This document shows positions 7,777 to 21,941 of a stretch of 21,941 nucleotides of DNA, one piece after another. The stretch comes from a virus. Positions within the stretch are counted from its first letter, which is position 1, and each line of letters opens with the position of its first letter. Location of the stretch: UHGV virus genome UHGV-0105323. One strand, 5' to 3'. The translations under genes and the position numbers were made by a program. The notes under the pieces are model-generated. The model ran no database searches. It worked only from the letters and a program-made list of their open reading frames with translations, and was not told where the DNA came from.

Positions 7777-8244
7777 ATGAGCCGTGTTCTGTGTGTGGTG
7801 ATTATTGTCCTGGCGGGTGGCTGTGGTGCGCTGTGGCTGGCAACAGACCATTACCGCGATAACGCCATCACCTACAAAGCGCAGCGCGATAAAAAAGCCA
7901 GAGAGCTGGAGCTGGCAAACGCAACCATTACTGATATGCAGGTGCGCCAGCGTGATGTTGCTGCGCTCGATGCAAAATACTCGAGGGAATTAGCTGATGC
8001 GAGAGCTGAAAATGAAACTCTTCGCGCTGACGTTGCCGCTGGTCGTAAGCGCCTGCGTATCAACGCCACCTGTCCAGGTCCCGTGCGTGAAGCCACCGGC
8101 ACCGCCCGCGTGGATAATGCAACCGGCCCCCGACTGGCAGACACCGCTGAACGGGATTATTTCATCCTCAGAGAACGGTTGATGACAATGCAGAAGCAGG
8201 TGGAAGGGGCGCAGGAATATATCCGCACTCAGTGTATTAACTAG
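7777..8244 (+). CDS. Rz: Rz i-spanin (inner-membrane spanin)
   Basis: 155-aa ORF with N-terminal TM ([12 protein letters not shown]) and a long coiled-coil-like periplasmic domain; follows the endolysin and contains an embedded Rz1 ORF in the +1 frame. Confidence 0.8.
8012..8182 (+). CDS. Rz1: Rz1 o-spanin (outer-membrane lipoprotein), embedded in Rz
   Basis: Alternate-frame ORF wholly inside Rz; product [15 protein letters not shown]... has a lipoprotein signal with lipobox LVVSAC and a proline-rich mature region. Confidence 0.75.
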
Positions 8245-8267
8245 TATTTTTGTTATCCGGAGAATGC

Positions 8268-8492
8268 ATGAAGAAATTACTGGTAACCGTAAAGCCTTTT
8301 CAGGGAACAATTCTGTTCCGTATTTTGCAGCGTGGTCGTGTTCTTGTTGAAGGTTCGTTCAGTGGTAAATGTATGCAATTACACTCCCGGACCTTTCAGG
8401 TGAATGCCACGAATGAAGAGCTAACCGTTGAGTGTACGATGAATACCGCTAAATGCCGCATGGTATCCGCTGCATTACAGCGAGTGTGTTGA
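8268..8492 (+). CDS. Hypothetical Cys-containing small protein (74 aa)
   Basis: ATG (MKKLLVTVKPF) with GGAGAA RBS, directly downstream of Rz in a bor-like position. No motif recognised. Confidence 0.4.
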   Translation: MKKLLVTVKPFQGTILFRILQRGRVLVEGSFSGKCMQLHSRTFQVNATNEELTVECTMNTAKCRMVSAALQRVC

Positions 8493-8690
8493 GCGACCTT
8501 ATTATCCATGCGCGGTATTGTCGCCGTATCCCCGCATTAACAGAGACCGCAGCCCGACCGGGAGACTCCTCTGCGCGAGTGTGCGGGGATAATCAAAAAC
8601 GATACACACCGGGGTTTACCGCGTTAACGGAGCGCGGCGTTGTCCCCTCATAGTCGCCTGTCCGGTGCGATGGTGGAAGAAACCGAACGT

Positions 8691-8891
8691 TCATTTCTCG
8701 TTATTTTTCATGCTGGCCGGGCGCAGATGCGTTGCATCTGTTGCCAGCCTTCTCCTGCAGGCTTCAATAACCCACGCTGAAAAGTTACCGGACCCTTTAT
8801 GCTCAAGGGCTATGTTGATTTGTTCAATTATGTGATTGGGGAAACGGATATTGCGGGTTGTGGTTCTGCGGGTCCGGTTTTTCGATGACAT
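8691..8891 (-). CDS. Ribbon-helix-helix (CopG/Arc-like) DNA-binding protein
   Basis: 66-aa reverse-strand ORF with AAAGGAAA RBS; RNIRFPNHIIEQINIALEHKG...FSAWVIEACRRRL fits a beta-strand, helix, loop, helix RHH pattern. Divergent from the HNH gene. Confidence 0.5.
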   Translation of the reverse strand: MSSKNRTRRTTTRNIRFPNHIIEQINIALEHKGSGNFSAWVIEACRRRLATDATHLRPASMKNNEK

Positions 8892-8932
8892 ATTTATTTC
8901 CTTTACTGATTGTCATATGACGGGGATTTTAC

Positions 8933-9298
8933 ATGGCTGAGCTTCGTACACTCCAGAGCAGAATCAAAACACTGAATACCCGACGGGTGAATATTCTGAA
9001 GGGTGAACAGCGTCGTGTCAGTGGCAGTGCACGTGTTTCCCTCAAGCGTCATATCTGGCTCAGGGACGCCGGGCAGTGCTGTATCTGTGGTCGTGTGGTT
9101 GACCTCTGTGACAGTGAACTTGATCACCGAATTGCACTTCAGTTCGGTGGTGGTAATGAGGAGACGAATCTCTGGACGCTCTGTACCGAATGCCATCGAC
9201 AAAAGTCTGCTCGTGAAGCGGCGGGTGGTATGCCGGACCCGACGCTGCCGGAGGTGTCCGGAGGTAGTGGCAGAGCGGACGACATCATCGGACTGTAA
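8933..9298 (+). CDS. HNH homing-type endonuclease (terminase-associated)
   Basis: 121-aa ORF with HNH motif (CCICG...DHRIALQFGG...NLWTLCTECHRQK); sits just upstream of the cos-like region and terminase small subunit, as in HK97-like cos phages. Confidence 0.8.
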   Translation: MAELRTLQSRIKTLNTRRVNILKGEQRRVSGSARVSLKRHIWLRDAGQCCICGRVVDLCDSELDHRIALQFGGGNEETNLWTLCTECHRQKSAREAAGGMPDPTLPEVSGGSGRADDIIGL

Positions 9299-9389
9299 CC
9301 CGACCCGGGGGGGGGATCATCCGGCGTAAAAAACGATCGCTTTGGACACCGCGCCCCCTCTCACGCAGAGAAAAAATTCCCGTTTCAGG

Positions 9390-9516
9390 CCAGTTAACAT
9401 GTTAACTGGCCGTCCGGGCATTTTTGCGGTTTTTATCTTTATTATTCATTTAGTTGCGCGAAAAAAATGTTAACTGGCTTTTTCAGAAAATGTTAACCAG
9501 GCAGCAGTTAACATTT
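9390..9516. other. Putative cos / terminase-recognition region with clustered GTTAAC repeats
   Basis: Five GTTAAC hexamers within about 125 bp, including a perfect 20-bp palindrome CCAGTTAACATGTTAACTGG (9390-9409) and three further ATGTTAAC-type motifs; a G9 homopolymer lies at 9308-9316. Located between HNH and TerS. Confidence 0.45.
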
Positions 9517-9588
9517 GCGGCATGAGACGCCGGGAAAAATGGGCTGAACCATACCCGGCTGAGTGCGTTCTGGACCCGGGAGGAGGCT

Positions 9589-10152
9589 GTGCTGACAACG
9601 CAAAAACGAAAATTTGCGCTGGCGCTCATGTCCGGGAAAAACAAAACAGCGTCAGCCATTGCCGCCGGTTATTCGGCGAAGACCGCCAGGGTTAAAGGCT
9701 CGCAGCTGGCAAAAGATCCGGAGGTGCTTGCGTTTATAGCCCGTAAACAATGCGAGACGGTGGAGGTGGATGAGGTTCCTGTTTACCGGCAGAAAAAATC
9801 AGAGCAGGAGGATAAACCCCGTCGCCGTGAGGCGGCTGCAATACCACAGCCGGACGAAAACAATCCGGAGATGCCACCGTCCGCGGTGATGTCTCCTGGT
9901 ATTGAATATATGGAGGATGGTCTTCCCGATCCGGTGAAAGCCATGGGGCGGATCCTGGTGGAAAACCTCTGCATTGATCCGAAACTGGCACTGGATGCGG
10001 CCTGGCGTCTGGCGCAGTTCACGCACCATAAAAAAGGGGATACCGGGAAAAAATCGGCAAAAGGTGATGCCGCGAAAAAAGCGGCTAACCGTTTTGCGGT
10101 GCCACCGCCACCCCGACTGGTGGTGAATAACGATAATGAGGGCAACGGATGA
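9589..10152 (+). CDS. Terminase small subunit
   Basis: GTG start with GGAGGAGG RBS; N-terminus (KRKFALALMSGKNKTASAIAAGYSAKTARVKGSQLAKDPEV) resembles phage terminase small-subunit HTH regions; HNH-cos-TerS synteny. Confidence 0.7.
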   Translation: MLTTQKRKFALALMSGKNKTASAIAAGYSAKTARVKGSQLAKDPEVLAFIARKQCETVEVDEVPVYRQKKSEQEDKPRRREAAAIPQPDENNPEMPPSAVMSPGIEYMEDGLPDPVKAMGRILVENLCIDPKLALDAAWRLAQFTHHKKGDTGKKSAKGDAAKKAANRFAVPPPPRLVVNNDNEGNG

Positions 10153-10406
10153 TACCTGTATGGAGCACAGCCTGCCCGGACTGGGCAGAGCGCCTGAAAA
10201 AGGGGCTGTCGATTATTCCGGATCCGATTTATCCGGACGAGGCCGCACATGCCCTGGCGATTTTTAAACAACTGCGGATTGTGGATGCACCTGGTAGCCC
10301 TACGTTCGGGGAGTCCTGTGCACCGTGGGTGGCGCAACTGGGCCTCATCCGTACTGCAGGAAATATCAAAAGTTCTTATGAATGCCGCGATTGTCAACGG
10401 AATTAA
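10149..10406 (+). pseudogene. Terminase large subunit, N-terminal fragment (truncated at a deletion junction)
   Basis: ORF overlaps the TerS stop (ATGA) and opens MIPVWSTACPDWAERLKKGLSIIPDPIYPDEA..., which resembles TerL N-termini of HK97/P27-like phages, but recognisable sequence runs only about 60 codons before the frame changes into tape-measure sequence. Junction estimated near 10330-10375. Confidence 0.6.
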
Positions 10407-10842
10407 GACGGCGGCAAACGGTATGTCCGGTGCGGGAGGATTTATTGGCAGCATTGGTGACTGGCTGGGCGGTGCGGTGGCCAATGCAAAAGGCGGCGTG
10501 TATACCTCGGCAAACCTGAGCGCGTACAGCAACAGTATTGTGGATACGCCCACGTACTTTGCCTTTGCAAAAGGGGCCGGGCTGATGGGGGAAGCAGGAC
10601 CTGAAGCCATAATGCCCCTGACCCGGGCGGCGGATGGCTCGCTGGGTGTACGCGCGGTGGGCAGTATGAACGGCAGTGCCGGTCTGGTGTATTCCCCGGT
10701 CTACCATATCGCCATTCAGAATGACGGGGCCAACGGTCAGATAGGGCCGGAGGCGGCAGGCAGCCTTGTTCAGCTGATTGACCAGCGGGTGCAGGCGGTG
10801 ATGCTGTCCATGCGACGAGACGGAGGAATGCTGAGTGGCTGA
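10249..10842 (+). pseudogene. H: Tail tape-measure protein (lambda H-like), C-terminal fragment
   Basis: Gly-rich C-terminal segment (AAIVNGIKTAANGMSGAGGFIGSIGDWLGGAVANAKGGVYTSANLSAYS...) of the kind found at lambda-H-like tape-measure C-termini, ending 8 nt past the start of M exactly as H precedes M in lambda. The first roughly 30-40 codons of this frame are out-of-frame TerL DNA. Confidence 0.65.
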
Positions 10843-11176
10843 GATAAAAACGCTGCATCTGGTCCCGCGTGAAGGGATGCAGGTGAGTGAGAAACCGTCG
10901 GTGGTGAGGGTCCGGTTTGGTGACGGTTATGAACAGCGCCGACCGACGGGACTGAATGCCCGACTGAAGACATTTCAGGCGGTGTTCCGGGTGACGGATG
11001 AGGCGACCCGGCGCTGGCTGGATGAATTTTTATCGTGGCATGGTGGTTACCGTGCCTTTTTGTGGAAACCCCCGAAACATAACCGGACGGTCAGGGTGGT
11101 GTGCCGGGAGTGGAGTATTACGGATAACGCCAGGTACAGCGATTTCAGTTGTATGATGGAACAGGTAATAAGATAA
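10835..11176 (+). CDS. M: Minor tail protein M
   Basis: 113-aa ORF (GTG start) with VRVRFGDGYEQRRPTGLNARLKT...FLWKPP motifs matching lambda gpM; H-M-L synteny. Confidence 0.85.
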   Translation: MAEIKTLHLVPREGMQVSEKPSVVRVRFGDGYEQRRPTGLNARLKTFQAVFRVTDEATRRWLDEFLSWHGGYRAFLWKPPKHNRTVRVVCREWSITDNARYSDFSCMMEQVIR

Positions 11177-11382
11177 GTTTTTGAGAAAAAACCTAAAAGC
11201 ATCGTTTATTAATTTGCTTGCTTGTTATTTTTGTTTTGTCTTGACATAAAGTGCTATCAAAGTTGTTTTTTTACATTTTGAAACAAAATAAAAATTGAAC
11301 CCGTAATTTAATTTACAATATTTTGAGTTTTGTTCATGACATCTCTATGCATGAATAGTTCAGTTTAAATAAGGATTAAATC

Positions 11383-12546
11383 ATGAAAAAAATGACAGTG
11401 GCACTTTCAGCTGTGGCAGCAGCTGTAATTTTTGCAGCGGGGGCGCAGGCTGCAGAAGTATACAATAAAGATGGCAATAAACTTGATGTGTATGGGCGTG
11501 CAACTGCACTCCATTATTTCTCCAGTGATAAGGGGGATGATGGAGATAAGACATACGCACGTCTGGGCTTTAAAGGTGAAACTCAGATTAATGACCAGTT
11601 GACTGGTTTTGGTCAGTGGGAATATCAGTTCTCTGGTAATAAAGCTGAATCAGAGGGTGCTGCGGGTAATAAAACCCGTCTTGCATTTGCAGGTCTGAAG
11701 TTTGGTGAGTTTGGCACCATTGATTATGGTCGTAACTATGGTATTGCGTACGATGTTGGTTCTTATACTGACGTATTACCAGAGTTTGGCGGTGATGGCT
11801 GGACCCAGACCGATAACTTCATGACAGCCCGTACTTCCGGGGTATTAACCTATCGTAATACAGATTTCTTTGGGCTTGTCGATGGCCTGAATTTTGCGGC
11901 ACAGTACCAGGGTAAAAATGATCGGGGTGATCTCCGGAAAGCTAATGGTGATGGTCACGGTTTCTCAGCCAGTTATGAATATGAAGGTTTTGGTATCGTT
12001 GCCGCATATATTAATGCGGACCGAACCAATAATCAGGAAAAAGGTCTGAATGGTACTCTGACGATTGAACAAACTGATCCTTTAACCGGTAAAGTGACTG
12101 AAAAGCAGATCGTTGTTGATTCCGGTAGTGTTGCAAAAGGTAAACACGCTGAGATGTGGGGAGTCGGACTAAAATACGATGCTGACAACCTTTACCTGGC
12201 TACAACATATTCCGAAACTCAGAATCTGACGACCTTTGGTGATAAAGGAGTTGCAGATAAAGCGCAAAACTTTGAAGCGGTACTGCAGTATCAGTTTGAT
12301 TTTGGTCTGCGCCCGTCCCTGGCCTACCTTCAGTCCCGCGGACAGGATGTTATGGTTGGTGGTGTGAACCATGGCGATCAGGATCTGGTTAAATATATTG
12401 ATGTCGGAGCGACTTATTACTTTAACAAGAATATGTCCACCTATGTTGATTATAAAATTAACCTGATTGATGAAAGTGAATTTACCCGGAAAGCCGGTGT
12501 TGCGACAGATAATATCGTTGCTGTGGGTATGACTTATCAGTTCTGA
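11383..12546 (+). CDS. General diffusion porin (OmpC/OmpF/PhoE family; NmpC/Lc-like prophage porin)
   Basis: 387-aa ORF with signal peptide ([38 protein letters not shown]), typical porin strands ([35 protein letters not shown]) and C-terminal ...VGMTYQF. Preceded by about 200 bp of very AT-rich DNA and followed by a strong terminator; inserted between M and L. Confidence 0.85.
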
Positions 12547-12718
12547 TTATTGCTGATAAGTTAATAAATACGGGCCGTCTGCCCTTACAGGCGGCCTGTA
12601 TCAATGAAAACACAGTTTTCATTGGTCACTGCGATCAGCAATTGCCATCTGGTATGTGCTGATTTAACTTTCTGTTATTACCTTTATTGGTTTTATTTTA
12701 AATTGGACTTTTATTGTT

Positions 12719-12744
12719 CGGGGCGCGTCTGCGCCCCTTTTTTA
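12719..12744 (+). terminator. Rho-independent terminator after the porin gene
   Basis: CGGGGCGCG-TCT-GCGCCCC followed by TTTTTT. Confidence 0.65.
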
Positions 12745-12755
12745 TGGGCGGATAT

Positions 12756-13454
12756 ATGCAGGATATTCACGAAGAAAGTCTGAACGAGTCGGTTAAATCA
12801 GAGCAGTCACCGCGGGTGGTGCTCTGGGAAATCGACCTGACGGTGCAGGGCGGTGAGCGGTATTTTTTCTGCAATGAGCTGAATGAAAAAGGGGAGCCGG
12901 TCACCTGGCAGGGGCGGCAATATCAGGCATACCCGATTGACGGTAGCGGTTTTGAGATGAGCGGGAAGGGCAGCAGTGCCAGACCGTTGCTGACGGTGTC
13001 CAATCTGTTCGGTCTGGTCACCGGGATGGCGGAGGATTTGCAGAGCCTGGTGGGGGCCACGGTGGTCCGCCGCCGGGTGTATGCCCGTTTTCTGGATGCG
13101 GTGAATTTCGTTGCGGGCAATCCGGAGGCGGACCCGGAGCAGGAGCTGAGTGACCGCTGGGTGGTGGAGCAGATGTCGGAGCTGACAGCCATGACGGCCT
13201 CGTTTGTGCTGGCCACACCGACCGAGACGGACGGGGCGCTGTTTCCCGGTCGTATCATGCTGGCGAACACCTGTATGTGGACCTACCGCTCTGATGAGTG
13301 TGGTTACACGGGCAGGGCTGTGGCGGATGAGTTCGATAAACCCACCACGGATATCCGTAAGGACAGATGCAGCAAGTGCATGCGCGGGTGTGAACTGCGC
13401 AGGAATGTCGGCAATTTTGGCGGTTTCCTTTCCATTAATAAACTTTCGCAGTAA
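12756..13454 (+). CDS. L: Minor tail protein L
   Basis: Start at the internal ATG (MQDIHEESLNE...) corresponding to the lambda gpL start; strong similarity throughout (VVLWEIDLT..GGERYFFCNE.NEKGEPVTWQGRQYQ.YPI.GSGFE...GNFGGFLSINKLSQ), including the conserved Cys cluster. Confidence 0.85.
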   Translation: MQDIHEESLNESVKSEQSPRVVLWEIDLTVQGGERYFFCNELNEKGEPVTWQGRQYQAYPIDGSGFEMSGKGSSARPLLTVSNLFGLVTGMAEDLQSLVGATVVRRRVYARFLDAVNFVAGNPEADPEQELSDRWVVEQMSELTAMTASFVLATPTETDGALFPGRIMLANTCMWTYRSDECGYTGRAVADEFDKPTTDIRKDRCSKCMRGCELRRNVGNFGGFLSINKLSQ

Positions 13455-13463
13455 TGGATTATG

Positions 13464-13486
13464 CCCACCGTCAGGTGGGTTTTTTA
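13464..13486 (+). terminator. Rho-independent terminator after L
   Basis: CCCACC-GTCA-GGTGGG followed by TTTTTTA. Confidence 0.55.
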
Positions 13487-13510
13487 TAAGGAGTAATCAT
13501 GATTTACCCA

Positions 13511-14047
13511 TCAAACAACCCACCAGTTTGCCTGATTGGATGCCAGCCTTGCAGTTTTTATGGAATTAATTATGCCATGCTCAAGAGCCTTGTTAGCATC
13601 CAAAATGGTCGAGTCTGCTATCAGGGATGCCCACCTAATATGGGTTCCGATGTCGATATTGAACGTCTCAACGAAGCGATCAAGATCGTTATCGAGGCAT
13701 TTCCCGTACTCTCTCAATCTGGCATGGTCGGCGGCTGGGGAGGCAAAGCACCATAATAGAGGATGTAACAGGAATCTTGATAATGGGTTTGCGAAACGTT
13801 CTGAGCCAGCCAGGAAAACGATATTAGCTATGGATTCAACATTGCTTATGTTGTGAGTTCTAACGGTAACAGGGAGTGACTTAAGAAAGTTATACGCAGT
13901 AAAGCCAGCGGCAGTTTCCCCTCCCTGACTTGATATATGGATATTTAATTCAGTTGCGCCTTGAGATAATGCGGTGAGACAGTGGTTCTGAAGTTGCCCA
14001 ACAGTGGCAGTGTTAACGGGGCATAAGAAATGAATTGTGTGCAGCAT
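13511..14047 (-). CDS. ClpP-fold serine peptidase-like protein (S14/ClpP-crotonase superfamily), accessory
   Basis: 178-aa reverse-strand ORF whose start overlaps the stop of the upstream Mnt-like gene (TAATG). Hand alignment to ClpP: ISSQGGETAAGF vs INSPGGVITAGM, a Ser at the nucleophile position (NVESIAN vs GQAASMG) and a His at the catalytic His position (RFLLHPL vs RVMIHQP). Confidence 0.5.
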   Translation of the reverse strand: MLHTIHFLCPVNTATVGQLQNHCLTALSQGATELNIHISSQGGETAAGFTAYNFLKSLPVTVRTHNISNVESIANIVFLAGSERFANPLSRFLLHPLLWCFASPAADHARLREYGKCLDNDLDRFVETFNIDIGTHIRWASLIADSTILDANKALEHGIINSIKTARLASNQANWWVV

Positions 14048-14295
14048 TATTTTTCATCCTTAGCATACATGGTCTTTAGCGTCTCAAGTAGCGCCTCTTT
14101 GAATTTATCAGCTTCTTGGTTAGCGAATCCTTCAAGTGAGCGAGAGCCATCAAGATTATCAACATGTTTTTGAAGGATAAGCACGATCTCTGAGTTCATT
14201 GATCTGCCGTTTTTATCCGCTTCTTGCTGAATGCGTTTCTTTAAATAGTCTGGAATCCTAATCCCCAATGGACTGATATCTCTTGCACCTTTCAT
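14047..14295 (-). CDS. mnt: Mnt-like ribbon-helix-helix repressor
   Basis: Start at the internal ATG behind AGGAGGAG, giving 82 aa, the same length as P22 Mnt. MKGARDISPLGIRIPDYLKKRIQQEADKNGRSMNSEIV... has the Arc/Mnt RHH N-terminus (NGRSMNSE). Divergent from the arc-ant pair across an operator-rich intergenic region. Confidence 0.65.
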   Translation of the reverse strand: MKGARDISPLGIRIPDYLKKRIQQEADKNGRSMNSEIVLILQKHVDNLDGSRSLEGFANQEADKFKEALLETLKTMYAKDEK

Positions 14296-14317
14296 TTCTC
14301 CTCCTGCACGCTGTGCG

Positions 14318-14392
14318 TAGCTACACAGTGTAGGCAAAAAATTTTTGACTTTAAATAAACACGGTGTAGTATTTAGTTATCACGGTGTAGCA
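14318..14392. promoter_or_regulatory. Divergent promoter/operator region of the immI-like module
   Basis: Perfect palindrome CTACACAGTGTAG (14321-14333), direct repeats CACGGTGTAG at 14360 and 14381 spaced 21 bp, and a -35-like TTGACT (14345-14350) 16 bp upstream of a -10-like TAGTAT (14367-14372); four GTGTAG half-sites in all. Confidence 0.5.
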
Positions 14393-14404
14393 AGTGAGGT
14401 GGAA

Positions 14405-14545
14405 ATGAAAGTTAGAGACATCGCTCCATTAGGGATTCGTATCCCGCCAGAGATTAAAGAAAAATTGAAGGAAAAGGCTAAGGAGGAGGGCAGGTCTTTA
14501 AATTCAGAAATAGTGCAGCGTCTTATTCGCAGCCTAAAAAGTTGA
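14405..14545 (+). CDS. arc: Arc-like ribbon-helix-helix repressor
   Basis: 46-aa product [46 protein letters not shown] with GAGGTGG RBS; same RHH signature as P22 Arc (NGRS.NSEI); immediately upstream of ant. Confidence 0.6.
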
Positions 14546-14575
14546 AGCCCCAACTGCTGGAACAGTCGGGGCTTC
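14544..14575 (-). terminator. Hairpin in the arc-ant intergenic region; reverse-strand terminator-like (possible sar-type antisense RNA terminator)
   Basis: Perfect 8-bp inverted repeat GAAGCCCC...GGGGCTTC; read on the reverse strand it is followed by AACTTTTTAGG. Confidence 0.35.
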
Positions 14576-14606
14576 GGTATCAACAAATCAGATAGGAATT
14601 ATTGAT

Positions 14607-15536
14607 ATGGCAAGTTTAGCAAAGTCAACATTAAATTGCACTAACAGCATCACCATTTCAGACGTCAAGATTCATATGGATTCAGAGGGGCGTTACTCGC
14701 TTAATGACCTGCACAAGGCATCAGGTAAAGAGCGTCGTCATGAGCCTGCTGCGTGGCTGCGACTCGAACAAACCAATGAGTTAGTTCAAGAAATTCTAAA
14801 TACACAGATGTGTGTATTTAAAAATGGCGATAACTTTAATTCTTCAGAATCGCAGATTAAGAAGCCAATGGACTCTAAGAAGGGTCGCTACGGAGGCACC
14901 TACGTGTGCAAGGAGCTTGTTTACTCCTACGCCATGTGGATTAGCGCAGCCTTTGCGCTGAAGGTTATCCGTGCATATGACGCAATGGTTACTACCACAC
15001 AAGAGAGGAAGGCTATTGGCGGTAAAACTTCAGTAGCTGAACGCACACCTCTACGCGATGCAGTAAACATGCTGGTAGGAAAGAAAGGACTTCGCTATGA
15101 CGATGCATACAATATGGTTCATCAGCGTTTTGGTATTGACAGCATTGATGAACTTTCAATTGAACAAATCCCGCTGGCCGTAGAGTACATCCACAGGGTA
15201 GTGCTTGAAGGTGAGTTCATTGGCAAACAAGAGAAGAAAACCAACGAGCTTTCCGCAAAAGAAGCAAACAGCCTTGTATGGCTATGGGATTATGCCAACC
15301 GCTCACAGGCATTATTCCGCGAACTGTATCCGGCGCTAAAGCAAATTCAATCGAACTATTCTGACAGGTGCTACAACTACGGCCATGAGTTCTCGTATGT
15401 TATTGGAATGGCGAGAGACGTTTTAATCAATCACACACGAGATGTTGATATTAATGAGCCAGATGGACCAACGAATCTTTCCGCATGGGTAAGGCTTAAG
15501 AGCAAAGAGTTGCCGCCTTCACTGCATCACTACTAA
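14607..15536 (+). CDS. ant: Antirepressor with N-terminal KilA-N domain (Ant-like)
   Basis: 309-aa ORF; N-terminal region ([25 protein letters not shown]...[19 protein letters not shown]...[29 protein letters not shown]) fits the KilA-N/Ant fold; size and position after arc match P22 Ant. Confidence 0.65.
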
Positions 15537-15555
15537 CAGATTACCAACGAAATGA

Positions 15556-15578
15556 CCCAGCCTCGGCTGGGTTTTTTA
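15556..15578 (+). terminator. Rho-independent terminator after ant
   Basis: CCCAGCC-TCG-GCTGGG followed by TTTTTT. Confidence 0.6.
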
Positions 15579-15590
15579 TCAGGAGTTCTC

Positions 15591-16328
15591 ATGCTCTATA
15601 GCAATATATTGGCACATGCCCGGCGGTGTGCGCCTGCGGAGTCGTGCGGCTTCGTGGTGAGAACGCCGGAGGGGGAGCGGTATATCCCTTGTGTGAATAT
15701 TTCCGCAGAGCCGGAGGCGTATTTTCGTATCGCACCGGAAGACTGGCTGCGGGCAGAGATGCAGGGGGAGATTGTGGCGCTGGTTCACAGTCATCCCGGT
15801 GGTCTGCCCTGGCTGAGCGAGGCTGACCGGCGGCTGCAGATAAAAAGCGCACTGCCCTGGTGGCTGGTCAGCCGGGGTGACATTCACAAATTCCGCTGTG
15901 TGCCACACCTGACGGGACGGCGCTTTGAGCACGGGGTGACGGACTGTTACACGCTGTTCCGGGATGCTTATCATCTGGCGGGGACTGAAATGCCGGATTT
16001 TCATCGCGAGGATGACTGGTGGCGCAACGGTCAGAACCTTTACCTGGACAATATGGAGGGAACGGGCTTTTACCGGGTGCCCCTGTCCTCTGCACAGGCG
16101 GGCGATATTCTGCTGTGCTGCTTTGGTGCTTCGGTACCGAACCATGCCGCCATTTACTGCGGCAACGGTGAGCTGCTTCACCATCTGCCTGAACAACTGA
16201 GTAAACGGGAGAGGTATTCCGAAAAATGGCAACGACGAACGCATTCTGTCTGGCGTCACCGCCACTGGCACGCATCTGCCTTCACGGGGATTTACAACGA
16301 TTTGGCCGCCGCCTCAGCCTGTATGTGA
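15591..16328 (+). CDS. K: Tail assembly protein K (JAB/MPN plus NlpC/P60-like)
   Basis: Start at the internal ATG (MLYSNILAHARRCAPAESCGFVV) with AGGAG RBS; MPN motif (ALVHSHPGG) and a downstream Cys/His peptidase-like region as in lambda gpK. The 3' end overlaps gene I by about 100 nt in another frame, so the exact stop is uncertain. Confidence 0.8.
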   Translation: MLYSNILAHARRCAPAESCGFVVRTPEGERYIPCVNISAEPEAYFRIAPEDWLRAEMQGEIVALVHSHPGGLPWLSEADRRLQIKSALPWWLVSRGDIHKFRCVPHLTGRRFEHGVTDCYTLFRDAYHLAGTEMPDFHREDDWWRNGQNLYLDNMEGTGFYRVPLSSAQAGDILLCCFGASVPNHAAIYCGNGELLHHLPEQLSKRERYSEKWQRRTHSVWRHRHWHASAFTGIYNDLAAASACM

Positions 16329-16906
16329 ACACGGCAGCGGAAGCCATCCGCGCCCTGTCGATGCAGATGCCGGGCTTTCGCCGTCAGATGAACGAAGGCT
16401 GGTACCAGATACGTATTGCCGGTGATGACACGGCACCGGAGGCGGTGTACGCCCGTCTTCACGAACAGCTGGGTGAGGGAACGGTCATCCACATTGTGCC
16501 GCGACTGGCCGGGGCCGGAAAGGGTGGACTGCAGATTGTGCTGGGGGCGGCAGCCATCGTGGGCTCTTTCTTCACTGCCGGGGCATCAATGGCGTTATGG
16601 GGTTCAGCCCTGAGTGCCGGTGGTTTTTCTGCCACCACGATGCTGTTTTCACTGGGGGCCAGCATGATACTGGGCGGTGTGGCACAGATGCTGGCCCCGA
16701 AGGCAAAAACACCGGATTACCGCGTAACGGATAACGGCAGACAGAACACGTACTTTTCCTCGCTGGATAACATGATTGCCCAGGGGAACCCGATGCCGGT
16801 GCCTTACGGGGAAATGCTGGTTGGCTCCCGGCGAATCTCCCAGGACATCAGTACCCGTGATGAAGGCGGGGGCGGAAAGGTCGTGGTTATCGGGCGGCAG
16901 GGGTAA
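16226..16906 (+). CDS. I: Tail assembly protein I
   Basis: 226-aa ORF (MATTNAFCLASPPLARICLHGDLQRFGRR...) with ubiquitin-like N-terminal region and Gly/Ala-rich hydrophobic C-terminal half, matching lambda gpI. Confidence 0.85.
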   Translation: MATTNAFCLASPPLARICLHGDLQRFGRRLSLYVNTAAEAIRALSMQMPGFRRQMNEGWYQIRIAGDDTAPEAVYARLHEQLGEGTVIHIVPRLAGAGKGGLQIVLGAAAIVGSFFTAGASMALWGSALSAGGFSATTMLFSLGASMILGGVAQMLAPKAKTPDYRVTDNGRQNTYFSSLDNMIAQGNPMPVPYGEMLVGSRRISQDISTRDEGGGGKVVVIGRQG

Positions 16907-16913
16907 AAAGAAT

Positions 16914-16952
16914 AAAAAAATCCCGCAGTGATCGCGGACAGGAACTGCGGGA
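16914..16952 (-). terminator. Reverse-strand rho-independent terminator-like hairpin
   Basis: 9-bp inverted repeat TCCCGCAGT...ACTGCGGGA; on the reverse strand the hairpin is followed by T7. Confidence 0.45.
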
Positions 16953-17114
16953 GAGTTACGAAGATTAAGTGTAAGGAATTATTCTTATGTCACGACAAAA
17001 AAATTAACGCAGAGAAATTATAAGTGCCACAGGGATTTTGTGAAAATGTGAAGATATTCAGAGTTTTTCTGTTTGTTCTTCTGGCGAGAGCGGATTCATT
17101 GACTGGTGGAGAAA

Positions 17115-17140
17115 AGGTAAGGGGGCAGCTCCCCTTACCA
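17115..17140 (-). terminator. Terminator of sodC (reverse strand)
   Basis: 9-bp stem GGTAAGGGG/CCCCTTACC just downstream of the sodC stop, followed on the reverse strand by TTTTCTCC. Confidence 0.55.
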
Positions 17141-17146
17141 GACTTG

Positions 17147-17674
17147 TTATGGGATGATACCACAGCCCATTCTTGCACCGCCGCCGCCGAGTGGATCTGG
17201 ATGGTCATGATAGTTGTCACCGCCAATGTGGATCATAAGAGACCGTCCGCTTATTTCTGTTAATTCTTTCAGTTTTGGTGCGAGAACCGGATAGTTTGCT
17301 TTTCCGTCATGAGTCACGTACAGAGCCGGGAGATCGCCCAGGTGACCATCAGGAGACCAGGGACCAAGATGTTTTCCAGTCTGTTTCGGGTCAAAGTGAC
17401 CGCCAGCTGCTAATGCCGCAACAGATACTCCATCTTTCAGAGCCGGCGCGCAACTTCCCTTTTCGTGCACATGAAATCCATGAATGCCCTGAGGTAAAGA
17501 GTGCAGATCTGGTGTGAACAGGAGACCATAGCTGGTCTCCTGGATAGTTATTGTTCCGGCGCTCACCTCTTTACCATCGGCATTAACAAGGTTCATGGGG
17601 ACTTTTATTGTGGCGGCATATCCACATGATGTTGCCAGCACCATTGCAATAGCAGCAAGACTTTTACGGTTCAT
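17147..17674 (-). CDS. sodC: Periplasmic Cu,Zn superoxide dismutase
   Basis: 175-aa ORF with signal peptide ([20 protein letters not shown]) and Cu/Zn-SOD metal-ligand motifs ([28 protein letters not shown]); reverse-strand insert between tail genes I and J. Confidence 0.9.
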
Positions 17675-17809
17675 AAAACCCTCATTAATTATTTTAACAG
17701 ACTGAGTTTACTGACTGCAGGAGTACAAACAGCGTTCTGATGATATCGCGCAATAGTTATTGAATGTGACTATTGCTTCGATTGATCATATCAATTAACA
17801 GGAGTTATC

Positions 17810-20800
17810 ATGGGTAAAGGTGGCGGCAAGGCGCACACACCTCGTGAGGCGAAGGATAATCTCAAATCCACGCAGATGATGAGCGTGATTGATGCGATTG
17901 GTGAGGGACCGATAGAAGGTCCGGTGAAGGGACTGCAGAGTATCCTGGTGAACAAAACCCCGCTGACGGACACGGACGGTAATCCCGTGATACACGGTGT
18001 GACCGCCGTCTGGCGTGCCGGGGAGCAGGAGCAGACACCACCGGAAGGCTTTGAGTCCTCCGGAGCTGAAACCGCACTGGGCGTGGAAGTGACGAAGGCA
18101 AAGCCGGTGACGCGCACCATTACGTCCGCGAACATTGACCGCCTGCGGGTGACCTTCGGGGTGCAGTCACTGGTGGAGACCACCTCAAAGGGTGACCGTA
18201 ATCCGACGTCTGTCCGCCTGCTGATTCAGCTTGAGCGTGGTGGTAAATGGATGACGGAAAAGGATGTCACCATTAACGGCAAGACCACCTCGCAGTTCCT
18301 GGCGTCGGTGATTCTGGATAATCTGCCGCCCCGGCCCTTTAACATCCGGATGGTCAGGGAGACGGCGGACAGCACCACGGACCAGCTGCAGAATAAGACG
18401 CTCTGGTCGTCATACACCGAAATCATCGATGTGAAACAGTGCTACCCGAACACGGCCATTGTGGGGCTGCAGGTGGATGCGGAGCAGTTCGGCGGCCAGC
18501 AGATGACGGTGAACTACCATATCCGCGGTCGCATCATCCAGGTGCCGTCAAACTATGACCCGGAAAAACGCACGTACAGTGGTATCTGGGACGGCAGTCT
18601 GAAACCGGCATACAGCAACAACCCGGCCTGGTGCCTGTGGGACATGCTGACTCACCCGCGCTACGGGATGGGAAAACGTCTGGGGGCGGCGGATGTGGAC
18701 AAGTGGGCGCTGTATGCCATCGGGCAGTACTGCGACCAGACGGTCCCGGATGGTTTCGGGGGCACAGAGCCGCGGATGACCTTTAATGCGTACCTGGCAC
18801 AACAGCGTAAGGCGTGGGACGTTCTCAGTGATTTCTGCTCGGCGATGCGCTGTATGCCGGTATGGAACGGCCAGACGCTGACGTTCGTTCAGGACCGCCC
18901 GTCGGATGTGGTGTGGCCGTACACCAACAGCGATGTGGTGGTGGATGATAACGGCGTGGGGTTCCGCTACAGCTTCAGTGCCCTGAAGGACCGGCACACG
19001 GCGGTGGAGGTGAATTACACCGACCCGCAGAACGGCTGGCAGACCTCCACGGAACTGGTGGAAGACCCGGAAGCCATACTGCGCTACGGACGCAACCTGC
19101 TGAAGATGGACGCGTTCGGCTGTACCAGCCGCGGTCAGGCCCACCGTGCCGGACTGTGGGTGATAAAGACCGAACTGCTGGAAACGCAGACGGTGGATTT
19201 CACACTCGGGTCACAGGGGCTGCGGCACACACCCGGTGACATCATTGAAATCTGTGATAACGACTATGCCGGAACCCTGACCGGCGGACGTGTCCTGTCC
19301 ATTGATGCTGCCACCCGCACCCTGACGCTGGACCGTGAAGTGACACTTCCGGGGACAGGTGCATCGACGGTGAACCTGATTAACGGCAGCGGTAAGCCGG
19401 TGAGTGTGGACATCACCGCACACCCCGCGCCGGACCGGATACAGGTCAGTACCCTGCCTGATGGTGTGGAGACATACGGGGTGTGGGGACTCTCCCTGCC
19501 GTCACTGCGCCGTCGCCTGTTCCGCTGTGTGGCCATCCGGGAAAACACGGACGGCACCTTTGCCATCACGGCGGTGCAGCACGTACCGGAAAAAGAAGCC
19601 ATTGTGGATAACGGAGCCCGCTTTGAGCCGCAGTCAGGCACCCTGAACAGCGTTATCCCTCCGGCAGTGCAGCACCTGACGGTGGAGGTGAGCGCAGCTG
19701 ACGGCCAGTATCTGGCGCTGGCGAAATGGGACACGCCGAGGGTGGTGAAGGGCGTGCGCTTCAGTCTGCGCCTGACCAGTGGAAGCGGTGAGAACAGCCG
19801 CCTGCTGACCACCGCCATCACTGCCGATACGGAGCACCGTTTCAGTGGCCTGCCTCTCGGGGAATACACCCTGACGGTCAGGGCGATTAACAGCTATGGC
19901 CAGCAGGGCGAACCCGCCACCACCACGTTCCGGATTAACGCACCGGCAGCGCCTGCCGGTGTTGAACTGACGCCGGGGTATTTTCAGATAACGGCAGTCC
20001 CGAAACTGACCATTTATGACCCGACGGTGCAGTTTGAGTTCTGGTTTTCGGAGGCAAAAATTGCAGACGCCGCACAGGTGGAAACCTCTGCCCGTTATCT
20101 GGGGACCGGCAGTCAGTGGAGTGTCTCCGGTCCGCACATTAAGCCCGGAAAGGATTTCTGGTTTTATGTGCGCAGCGTCAACCTGGTGGGTAAATCTGCT
20201 TTTGTGGAAGCCAGTGGACGGGCGAGCAATGATGCTGCGGGCTATCTGGAACTTTTCCGGGAAAAGATAGGAAAACTGCATCTGGCAGAGGCGCTGTGGG
20301 CAGAGATTGACAACAGTCAGCTGAAGGACGAGATGGCGGAAATGCAGACCACCATCACAGAAACCCGCAATGAAATCACACAGACGGTCAGTAAAACGCT
20401 GGAGGACCAGAGCGCCACCATACAGCAGATACAGCGCGTGCAGAAGGACACAAATGATGACCTTGCTGCACTTTACATGCTGAAGGTACAGAAAACAAAA
20501 AATGGCATACCCTATGTTGCCGGTATTGGAGCGGGGATTGAGGATACTGATGGCCAGCCCCTGAGCAACATACTGCTGCTGGCTGACCGTATTGCGATGA
20601 TTAACCCGGAGGACGGCAACACCACGCCGTTATTTGTGGCGCAGGGGAATCAGTTGTTCATGAACGATGTGTTCCTGAAGCGGCTGTTTGCGGTGAGTAT
20701 CACCTCGTCCGGCAATCCCCCGACGTTTTCCCTGACGCCGGAGGGCAGGCTGACCGCAAGAAATGCTGATATCAGCGGTAACGTGAATGCGAATTCCGGG

Positions 20801-21283
20801 ACGCTCAACAACGTCACGATTAACGAGAACTGTCGGGTTCTGGGAAAACTGTCCGCGAACCAGATTGAAGGCGATCTCGTTAAAACAGTGGGCAAAGCTT
20901 TCCCCCGGGACTCCCGTGCACCGGAGCGGTGGCCATCAGGGACCATTACCGTCAGGGTTTATGACGATCAGCCGTTTGACAGGCAGATTGTTATTCCGGC
21001 GGTGGCATTCAGTGGCGCTAAGCATAAGAGAGAGCATACTGATATTTACTCCTCATGCCGTCTGATAGTGCGGAAAAACGGTGCTGAAATTTATAACCGT
21101 ACCGCGCTGGATAATACGCTGATTTACAGTGGCGTTATTGATATGCCTGCCGGTCACGGTCACATGACGCTGGAGTTTTCGGTATCAGCATGGCTGGTGA
21201 ATAACTGGTATCCCACAGCAAGTATCAGCGATTTGCTGGTTGTGGTGATGAAGAAAGCCACCGCAGGCATCAGTATCAGCTGA
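17810..21283 (+). CDS. J: Host specificity protein J (central tail fiber)
   Basis: 1157-aa ORF with AGGAG RBS; N-terminus [39 protein letters not shown] and many internal blocks collinear with lambda gpJ. Confidence 0.9.
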
Positions 21284-21301
21284 ATTTTATAACCCATATA
21301 C

Positions 21302-21327
21302 GGGCGCCAGAAATGGCGCCTTTTTTA
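21302..21327 (+). terminator. Rho-independent terminator after J
   Basis: GGCGCC-AGAAAT-GGCGCC followed by TTTTTT. Confidence 0.65.
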
Positions 21328-21350
21328 TTGCAGAAAAGCGAGAGGTAATT

Positions 21351-21941
21351 ATGCGTAAAGTTTGTGCAGCCATTTTGTCCGCAGCCATCTGTCTGGCCGT
21401 ATCCGGTGCGCCTGCATGGGCGTCTGAGCAGCAGGCCACGCTGAGTGCGGGGTATCTTCATGCCCTGACGAACACTACCGGTAGTGATGATCTGAACGGG
21501 ATTAACGTGAAATACCGTTATGAATTTACGGACACGCTGGGGCTGATTACGTCATTCAGTTATGCCAATGCTGAAGGTGAGCAAAAAACGCACTACAACG
21601 ATACCCGCTGGCATGAGGATTCTGTGCGTAACCGCTGGTTCAGCGTGATGGCGGGGCCATCTGTGCGCGTGAATGAATGGTTCAGCGCTTATGCGCTGGC
21701 CGGAGTGTCGTATGCCCGGGTGTCGTCTTTTGCCGGTGATTATGTGACCCTCACGTCAGATGAGGGTAAAAAGCAGGAGCACCTGACCCGTTCGGACAGC
21801 GGACGCCGCAGCCATACCGCACTGACATACAGTGCAGGCGTGCAGATTAACCCGACAGAAAATATCGTGGTCGACCTGGCTTATGAAGCCTCAGGACGTG
21901 GTGACTGGCGTACGGATGCGTTTATTGTCGGCACCGGATAC
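21351..21941 (+). CDS. lom: Lom/Ail-family outer membrane protein (3' end beyond the window)
   Basis: ATG with GAGAGG RBS; signal peptide then NGINVKYRYEFTD...GVQINPTENIVVDLAYEASGRGDWRTDAFIVGTGY, matching the Lom/Ail/PagC beta-barrel family; immediately follows J as in lambda. Absent from the ORF track because no stop falls inside the window. Confidence 0.8.
   Translation, partial: MRKVCAAILSAAICLAVSGAPAWASEQQATLSAGYLHALTNTTGSDDLNGINVKYRYEFTDTLGLITSFSYANAEGEQKTHYNDTRWHEDSVRNRWFSVMAGPSVRVNEWFSAYALAGVSYARVSSFAGDYVTLTSDEGKKQEHLTRSDSGRRSHTALTYSAGVQINPTENIVVDLAYEASGRGDWRTDAFIVGTGY

Follow-up and report, generated by a model that had tools for sequence, protein, structure and literature searches.

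What becomes of a tailed virus genome in which a terminase gene appears to run straight into the end of a tape-measure gene? The question is raised by positions 10149-10842 of the window, by which we mean the whole stretch of 21,941 nucleotides analysed here, a complete metaSPAdes contig from a metagenome (ENA ERZ1303586, NODE_1391_length_21941, ~12.8x coverage). An earlier note, drawn up from the letters alone, had interpreted these positions as a deletion junction and had suggested that the genes left behind may persist as domesticated functions or as a satellite-like remnant. Through comparison with intact phages, with a nearly identical undeleted prophage and with other contigs carrying the same junction, we arrive at the following reading, to which we assign a probability of roughly 0.93: the locus is the scar of a 12.3-kb microhomology deletion in a lambdoid Escherichia coli prophage that is doubly deleted, cryptic and incapable of forming particles. 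The features on which the argument draws are collected in Table 1.

Table 1. Features at and around the two deletion junctions; positions are counted from the first letter of the window.
Feature	Position	Strand	Basis
Chimeric 101-aa ORF over the second junction (54-57)	11-316	+	Alignment to L016, gene order
HNH endonuclease gene, 121 aa, intact	8933-9298	+	Pfam HNH match of identical gene
Array of ATGTTAAC(TG) motifs, both orientations	9388-9516		Intergenic, upstream of TerS gene
TerS gene, 187 aa, intact	9589-10152	+	Pfam Terminase_2, E = 1.3e-08
TerL remnant, codons 1-61	10149-10331	+	61/61 residues identical to intact TerL
Deletion junction	10330-10331		2-nt TG common to both parents; three-way comparison with L016/L007, L001 and L002
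Out-of-frame read-through of TerL frame into tape-measure DNA	10332-10406	+	24 codons plus stop; translation
Tape-measure gene remnant, last 170 of 1080 codons	10332-10842	+	Frame +1 relative to TerL
Minor tail protein M gene, 113 aa, intact	10835-11176	+	Pfam Phage_min_tail, E = 5e-28, full length

Reading frames across the junction

The open reading frame (ORF) that follows the TerS gene, with which it shares an ATGA overlap, spans 10149-10406 and encodes 85 amino acids. The earlier note had estimated that TerL-like sequence lasts for about 60 codons, and protein comparison with an intact counterpart of 553 amino acids sets the number at exactly 61. Beyond them the TerL frame runs on to its stop at 10406, and the last 24 residues of the product are out-of-frame tape-measure sequence matching nothing. 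In frame +1, a 197-aa ORF (10249-10842, with TGA at 10840-10842) stays open across the junction; from its residue 28 (nucleotide 10330) onward, it matches the C-terminal 170 residues of the intact tape-measure protein at 100% identity (residues 841-1010 of a partial intact sequence). The proposal that a tape-measure C-terminus follows in a different frame and ends at the start of M was therefore accurate. The alternative starts of this remnant are ATG 10249 (197 aa, with a chance GAGG upstream) and ATG 10378 (154 aa, with a weak ribosome-binding site), and its stop overlaps the GTG start of M at 10835, a gene that has its own GGAGG ribosome-binding site (anti-SD duplex energy of -9.5 kcal/mol).

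Neither remnant retains a recognizable domain. In intact TerL, the ATPase domain (PF03354) begins at residue 63, so that the remnant ends just before it; no Pfam match was obtained for the remnant, and both the ATPase and the nuclease (PF20441) domains are missing. The tape-measure remnant begins inside the Tape_meas_lam_C domain (PF09718) and matches none of the Pfam tape-measure families PF20155, PF06120 and PF09718; with 170 of 1080 residues left, the long helical length-determining region and the complete lambda-type C domain are missing. Judged by frames and domains, the two remnants are pseudogene fragments, and neither would be expected to have terminase or tape-measure function.

Could 10149-10842 nonetheless be one gene, encoding a functional protein with a TerL N-terminus and a tape-measure C-terminus, for example, by programmed frameshifting at the junction? 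The 197-aa ORF is indeed open over the junction, and GAGG stands six bases upstream of its ATG. However, the TerL and tape-measure parts do not share a frame, residues 1-27 of the 197-aa ORF derive from TerL sequence read out of frame, and in the intact phage ATG 10249 opens a short unrelated ORF of ~68 codons. The ORFs are devoid of Pfam domains, no slippery heptamer is evident when the junction sequence is read by eye, and gene calls for the 154-aa product extend to contigs whose tape-measure lesions are unrelated. A functional fusion is thus extremely improbable, and the locus is two frames rather than one intact gene.

Mapping of the breakpoint

Local alignment of the window to phages YYZ-2008 (L001) and vB_EcoS-569R3 (L002) yielded two segments, the first reaching 10331 and matching TerL through codon 61, the second starting at 10330 and matching the 3' part of the tape-measure gene. 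A megablast search of the phage collection split at the same point (query base 932, i.e., window 10331). At the breakpoint, the left parent reads ...CACCGTGGGTG and continues with TTTGAC..., the right parent reads ...AAAGTGGAATG and continues with GCGCAAC..., and the window reads ...CACCGTGGGTGGCGCAAC... across it. The sequences flanking the common TG are imperfectly similar (GTGGGTG versus GTGGAATG), and no direct or inverted repeats longer than chance were found around the junction. Mapping against intact phages, as the earlier note had advised, thus placed the breakpoint at 10330/10331 with three intact references; of the microhomology that had been anticipated at 10330-10375, the zone starts at the right base, but the common sequence amounts to only 2 nt. 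Chance is not an issue, because the match to the parent extends for more than 10 kb on either side. Carriers of the deleted element would be recognizable by the 25-mer GCACCGTGGGTGGCGCAACTGGGCC.

We infer that a single illegitimate, microhomology-mediated deletion of 12.3 kb joined TerL codon 61 out of frame to codon 911 of the 1080-codon tape-measure gene. An illegitimate event is favored because homologous or site-specific recombination would call for a longer common sequence.

The undeleted parent and the extent of the loss

By exact-protein look-up, the undeleted prophage was found in the E. coli chromosome CP170294.1 (GCA_053164725.1), where it adjoins btsS/btsR. Positions 54-10331 and 10330-21941 of the window are 99.8-99.9% identical to this chromosome over 10.3 kb and 11.6 kb, respectively. 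In the left arm, the only differences are a 16-nt patch at 5449-5532 and a one-base indel in a poly-G run at 9307; in the right arm, they are 11 changes in J (18757-20431), the J protein being identical. The interval missing from the window measures 12,323 bp in CP170294.1, and the direct comparison establishes the loss of the rest of TerL and of most of the tape measure.

The patch at 5449-5532 comprises 16 substitutions in 84 nt relative to the intact relative and to other deletion-bearing contigs, with identical flanks, and resembles a short tract of gene conversion with another prophage as donor. Purifying selection was considered for the differences in J, 11 of 11 of which are synonymous, and was rejected: they all fall within 1.7 kb, and each of three other deletion variants likewise shows exactly 11 mismatches over J, as counted against the CP170294.1 segment L007. 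Given this clustering and the equal mismatch counts, we read the J changes as an imported allele and not as post-deletion evolution.

Two annotated relatives complete the picture. YYZ-2008 (Pankowvirus YYZ2008, NC_011356), which adjoins btsS as does the intact relative in CP170294.1, and vB_EcoS-569R3 (ON470597) are 91-99% identical to the window around both breakpoints and have the late-region order in common with it: lysis, DUF3950, HNH, TerS, TerL, capsid, portal and connectors, followed by major tail, chaperones, tape measure, M, L, K, I and J. Compared with these phages, the window lacks the stretch from TerL codon 62 to tape-measure codon 910 and has extra cargo, namely, a porin between M and L, a module of ClpP-like protease, Arc, sar and Ant between L and K, and SodC between I and J. 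The equivalent interval in the relatives is 11.8-12.0 kb long and encodes, on the head side, the rest of TerL, a capsid/scaffold (capsid/protease) fusion, portal, head-tail adaptor and head closure protein and, on the tail side, a gp10-like protein, tail terminator, major tail protein, two chaperones and tape-measure codons 1-910. For the middle 8.6 kb in CP170294.1, between the segments L016 and L007, gene content was deduced from the length of the interval and from the annotated relatives, by comparison with which the capsid, portal, connector, major tail and chaperone genes would have been lost too. The parent was probably a prophage of the YYZ-2008 (Pankowvirus)-like group with an HK97-type head/terminase module, and the deletion cost it both enzymatic domains of TerL (ATPase and nuclease), the greater part of the tape measure and, if the annotated relatives are a guide, the head and tail-shaft block. 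The central claim of the earlier note, a deletion junction with head and proximal tail genes gone, thus holds against YYZ-2008, vB_EcoS-569R3 and the near-identical E. coli prophage.

Recurrence of the junction in other assemblies

In an exact-protein look-up, the 85-aa junction product was called, unchanged, on 5-6 contigs in gut-metagenome ENA and Logan assemblies. The contig names point to differing assemblers (k119, k127, SPAdes-style NODE, Logan and METAG scaffolds), and the sequences represent three distinct haplotypes: the version of the window, also present in ERR1190732/ERZ917765; a second one with the intact-parent allele at 5449-5532 (ERZ27272415 and ERZ28596679); and a third one (haplotype C, L006, ERZ28628315), for which 10 of the 11 differences lie at 9358-9527. 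Recurrence in distinct haplotypes indicates that the deleted form has persisted and spread.

The junction is known from metagenome assemblies only. A 200-bp query found it in 0 of 5,426 complete E. coli genomes, megablast in none of the phage records, and an exact 25-mer search in none of the GTDB representatives, IMG/VR or JGI metagenome contigs. E. coli MY504 (H56), considered as a carrier of the same deletion on account of a similar span, was rejected; it actually has two adjacent prophages joined as one 'place'. All junction-bearing contigs end inside the prophage, the sequence seen extending from N on the left to Lom on the right, and those of ~25 kb gave no sign of circularity, having no terminal overlap and a left end unrelated to the right. 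Head genes located elsewhere in the same prophage, the other circumstance that the earlier note had named as fatal to its claim, did not turn up: the longer contigs add only N, cI, cro and cII on the left and Lom on the right, and between N and Lom there is no capsid, portal, connector, major tail or chaperone gene and no full TerL or tape-measure gene.

These contigs also bear on whether the junction is real. It could be an assembly artefact, a chimeric or collapsed contig joining parts of one or several co-resident lambdoid prophages, a suspicion nourished by the metagenomic origin of the window as one contig of ~12.8x coverage, by the several similar lambdoid prophages that E. coli strains carry, and by the absence of the junction from isolate genomes. 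However, the parents have only 2 nt in common at the join, whereas a de Bruijn mis-join needs an overlap of ~k-1 bases, and the junction is identical in several accessions produced, apparently, by different assemblers. Because three haplotypes from several assemblies carry it, we consider an artefact very unlikely and treat the junction as a genuine deletion.

A second deletion and its possible consequences for transcription

A second junction lies at the left end of the window. Positions 1-57 correspond to 1837-1893 of the CP170294.1 segment L016 and positions 54-10331 to L016 9588-19866, with TTGC common to both, so that 7,698 bp (L016 1894-9591) are missing at a 4-nt microhomology. Both deletions could be mapped to the base, with microhomologies of 2 and 4 nt, because a near-identical parent exists. 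The gene order cII-O-P-nin-Q-orf67-Mtase of intact relatives is reduced to cII-101aa-Mtase in the deleted contigs, and the 101-aa ORF consists, in frame, of O codons 1-15, a 19-codon linker and the 67-aa ORF found downstream of Q in the intact phage. Within the deleted interval lie O from codon 16, P, the nin region and Q, along with a promoter-like site at the end of Q (putative pR', L016 9422-9450) and a strong terminator hairpin (L016 9500-9527). The lambda origin sits within O, and the origin should therefore be lost too. This would be an independent, microhomology-mediated event of 7.7 kb.

Upstream of the second junction, longer contigs of the same element keep N, cI (S24 peptidase), cro and cII. 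A nutR-like site between cro and cII consists of a boxA-like CGCTCTTT and a hairpin TCGCTGACAAAGCGA, which we take to resemble lambda boxA and P22 boxB, respectively. Since the second deletion took Q, the putative pR' and the terminator, the former late genes would now be on the N-antiterminated pR transcript and would no longer depend on Q. Taken together, the two deletions would leave a locked-in cryptic prophage with its immunity region, tRNAs, methyltransferase, esterase, lysis genes, HNH, TerS, M-L-K-I-J and cargo, which would be unable to replicate or package its DNA, or to assemble heads or tail shafts.

Retained genes, cargo and a repeat array

What has been retained is full length throughout: three tRNAs, methyltransferase, TerB and a SASA (NanS-p-type) esterase; holin, lysozyme, Rz, HNH and TerS; and M, porin, L, ClpP-like protease, Arc, sar, Ant, K, I, SodC, J and Lom. 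YYZ-2008 and vB_EcoS-569R3 carry the HNH gene under the annotation HNH or homing endonuclease, and TerS has the same length in intact relatives. The region 9290-9600 holds three direct-repeat families and six inverted-repeat pairs; the ATGTTAAC(TG) motif occurs in at least five copies, including a perfect 24-nt palindrome at 9388-9411. The array is a putative terminase-recognition (cos-proximal) region and, with the intact TerS and HNH genes, may form a packaging region usable by a helper.

Several of the accompanying genes deserve a description of their own. The three tRNA genes (CAT, TCG and TCT anticodons; 1566-1816, + strand) lie downstream of the methyltransferase gene, and an STnc100 sRNA match (2654-2862, + strand, 134.7 bits) lies upstream of the SASA esterase gene, a layout that, we presume, resembles the late region of Stx-converting phages; no stx genes appeared in the gene tables. 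The OmpC-like porin between M and L (387 aa, 11383-12546, + strand, Pfam Porin_1/Porin_4, full length) is preceded by an AT-rich region, and a porin annotated 'ompC: porin OmpC' is likewise located between M and L in several complete E. coli prophages. Between L and K, a P22 immI-like module (13511-15536) comprises genes for a ClpP-like protease (13511-14047, - strand) and an Arc-like repressor (14047-14337, - strand), a small Arc-like ORF, the sar antisense RNA (14540-14605, - strand, Rfam 67.6 bits) and a KilA-N/P22_AR_C antirepressor gene (14607-15536, + strand). SodC, a Cu/Zn superoxide dismutase (Pfam Sod_Cu; 17147-17674, - strand), is a moron between I and J.

Does the completeness of these genes mean that the remnant is maintained for a function? 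It might be a cos-, TerS- and HNH-bearing element packaged by a helper, or a cassette for virion-free lysis and cargo expression, controlled by CI and triggered by the SOS response. Such a role would be served by the intact HNH and TerS genes with the repeat-rich region upstream of TerS, by the presence of N, cI, cro, cII and the nutR-like boxA/boxB next to the loss of Q, the putative pR' and the terminator, by the full-length lysis, tail-tip and cargo genes, and by the persistence and spread of three haplotypes that differ by recombination-like patches. There is also a precedent, in that prophages of E. coli O157:H7 Sakai without terminase or head genes can be packaged with the products of other prophages (Asadulghani et al. 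2009, PMC2669165). However, because the arms are essentially identical to the intact prophage, intact ORFs are expected without selection and carry no information on it, and for the same reason, the deletions are too recent to show domestication. The scar is out of frame at a 2-nt microhomology and does not look like an engineered fusion. With O, P and the origin gone, there would be no amplification and no concatemers for cos packaging; satellite hallmark genes are absent; and no tail or tailocin can be built from tail-tip genes if tube, terminator, chaperones and tape measure are lacking. Helper-dependent or functional maintenance is thus unlikely, and the suggestion of domesticated functions or a satellite-like remnant is not upheld, given arms essentially identical to the intact prophage and the deletion of O, P, ori and Q. 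The feature is best described as ordinary prophage decay, and the element as a very young cryptic prophage.

Other deletions in the same lineage

Random decay is also what the remainder of the lineage suggests. Other contigs with an identical J protein (L009, L010 and L011) are independent deletion variants, in which codon ~106 of the major tail gene is joined to codon ~142 of Ant at a 3-nt overlap, with loss of the tape measure, M, porin, L and the ClpP/Arc module; in L011, a second stretch is missing inside I, at an 8-nt overlap. That these variants lose different blocks, including M, L and porin, fits random decay and counts against functional maintenance. On the basis of these comparisons, decay has set in repeatedly and along different routes in this prophage lineage, which is what the known behavior of lambdoid prophages in E. 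coli would lead one to expect.

The 154-aa ORF of the tape-measure C-terminus recurs in many E. coli contigs with other lesions just upstream of ATG 10378. These comprise a TGG-to-TAG stop (L023), a 14-nt deletion (L024), insertions of a Mu right end (L026 and L028) and scaffold gaps. In L026 and L028, the Mu-like insertion lies ~10 nt downstream of the equivalent of window position 10331, in the tape-measure gene of another E. coli prophage; its end, ...CGTTTTTCGTGCGCCGCTTCA, which we take to be the right end of phage Mu, is preceded by a Pfam Mom-family gene. A breakpoint hotspot near ATG 10378 was considered and dismissed as a matter of ascertainment, since the look-up returns only contigs with an exact 154-aa call; the lesions cluster because such a call is expected mainly if the lesion lies shortly upstream of ATG 10378 (within an estimated ~55 nt).

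Discussion

Collinear, high-identity homology on both sides of the junction and missing particle-forming genes identify the element as a defective lambdoid prophage, and the feature is a further instance of this well-known kind. Further cryptic lambdoid prophages are DLP12, Rac and Qin of E. coli K-12. As in the Sp prophages of Sakai, essential blocks (replication, packaging, head and tail) have been lost by deletion, whereas lysis, tail-tip and host-range genes and morons (Lom, SodC and porin) are kept, and there is a pool of similar prophages exchanging sequence patches. There is ample documentation, from E. coli O157 Sakai, of lambdoid prophages made defective by deletions of this type (PMC2669165). 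Unlike for defective prophages such as these, a near-identical undeleted parent is at hand, decay is at a very early stage with no secondary pseudogenes, and the junction occurs in no complete E. coli genome searched.

The comparison with phage satellites leads elsewhere. Satellites that rely on helper capsids include PICIs with a helper cos site and P4, and the present element is like them in having no capsid genes of its own and in keeping a putative packaging-recognition region and a TerS that the large subunit of a helper could in principle use. However, it differs from PICIs and P4 in lacking its own replicon, helper-sensing derepression, and capsid-remodelling or interference genes, and, instead of representing an independent lineage, it has the sequence of the parental phage itself. 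A replication module or origin of its own was not found, O from codon 16 through Q being deleted, and the Pfam lists contain no interference or capsid-redirection genes, only standard lambdoid genes and morons. Nor is the element a tailocin: judging by the annotated relatives, the major tail, tail terminator and chaperone genes are lost along with 910 tape-measure codons, with the tip genes M, L, K, I and J left.

We consider it improbable that the two deletions amount to a rewiring of the prophage into a CI-controlled, SOS-triggered, particle-free lysis and cargo module, or into a helper-mobilised, cos-bearing remnant. If this were true, the tRNAs, methyltransferase, esterase, lysis genes, TerS, tail-tip and cargo genes would be driven by N-antiterminated pR, the loss of the head and tail shaft would prevent virions, and the module would be maintained in human-gut E. 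coli as three haplotypes. Under the preferred reading, a doubly deleted prophage in early decay, the consequences are mainly for annotation: positions 10149-10842 should be recorded as a pseudogene scar and not as two small genes, and the contig as a defective prophage and not as a viable phage genome. Beyond annotation, the significance is slight. Nevertheless, the element provides a clean, base-resolved example of very early prophage decay, with two microhomology deletions, a near-identical parent and siblings carrying other deletions, and may be of use in studies of the speed and route of prophage inactivation in gut E. coli.
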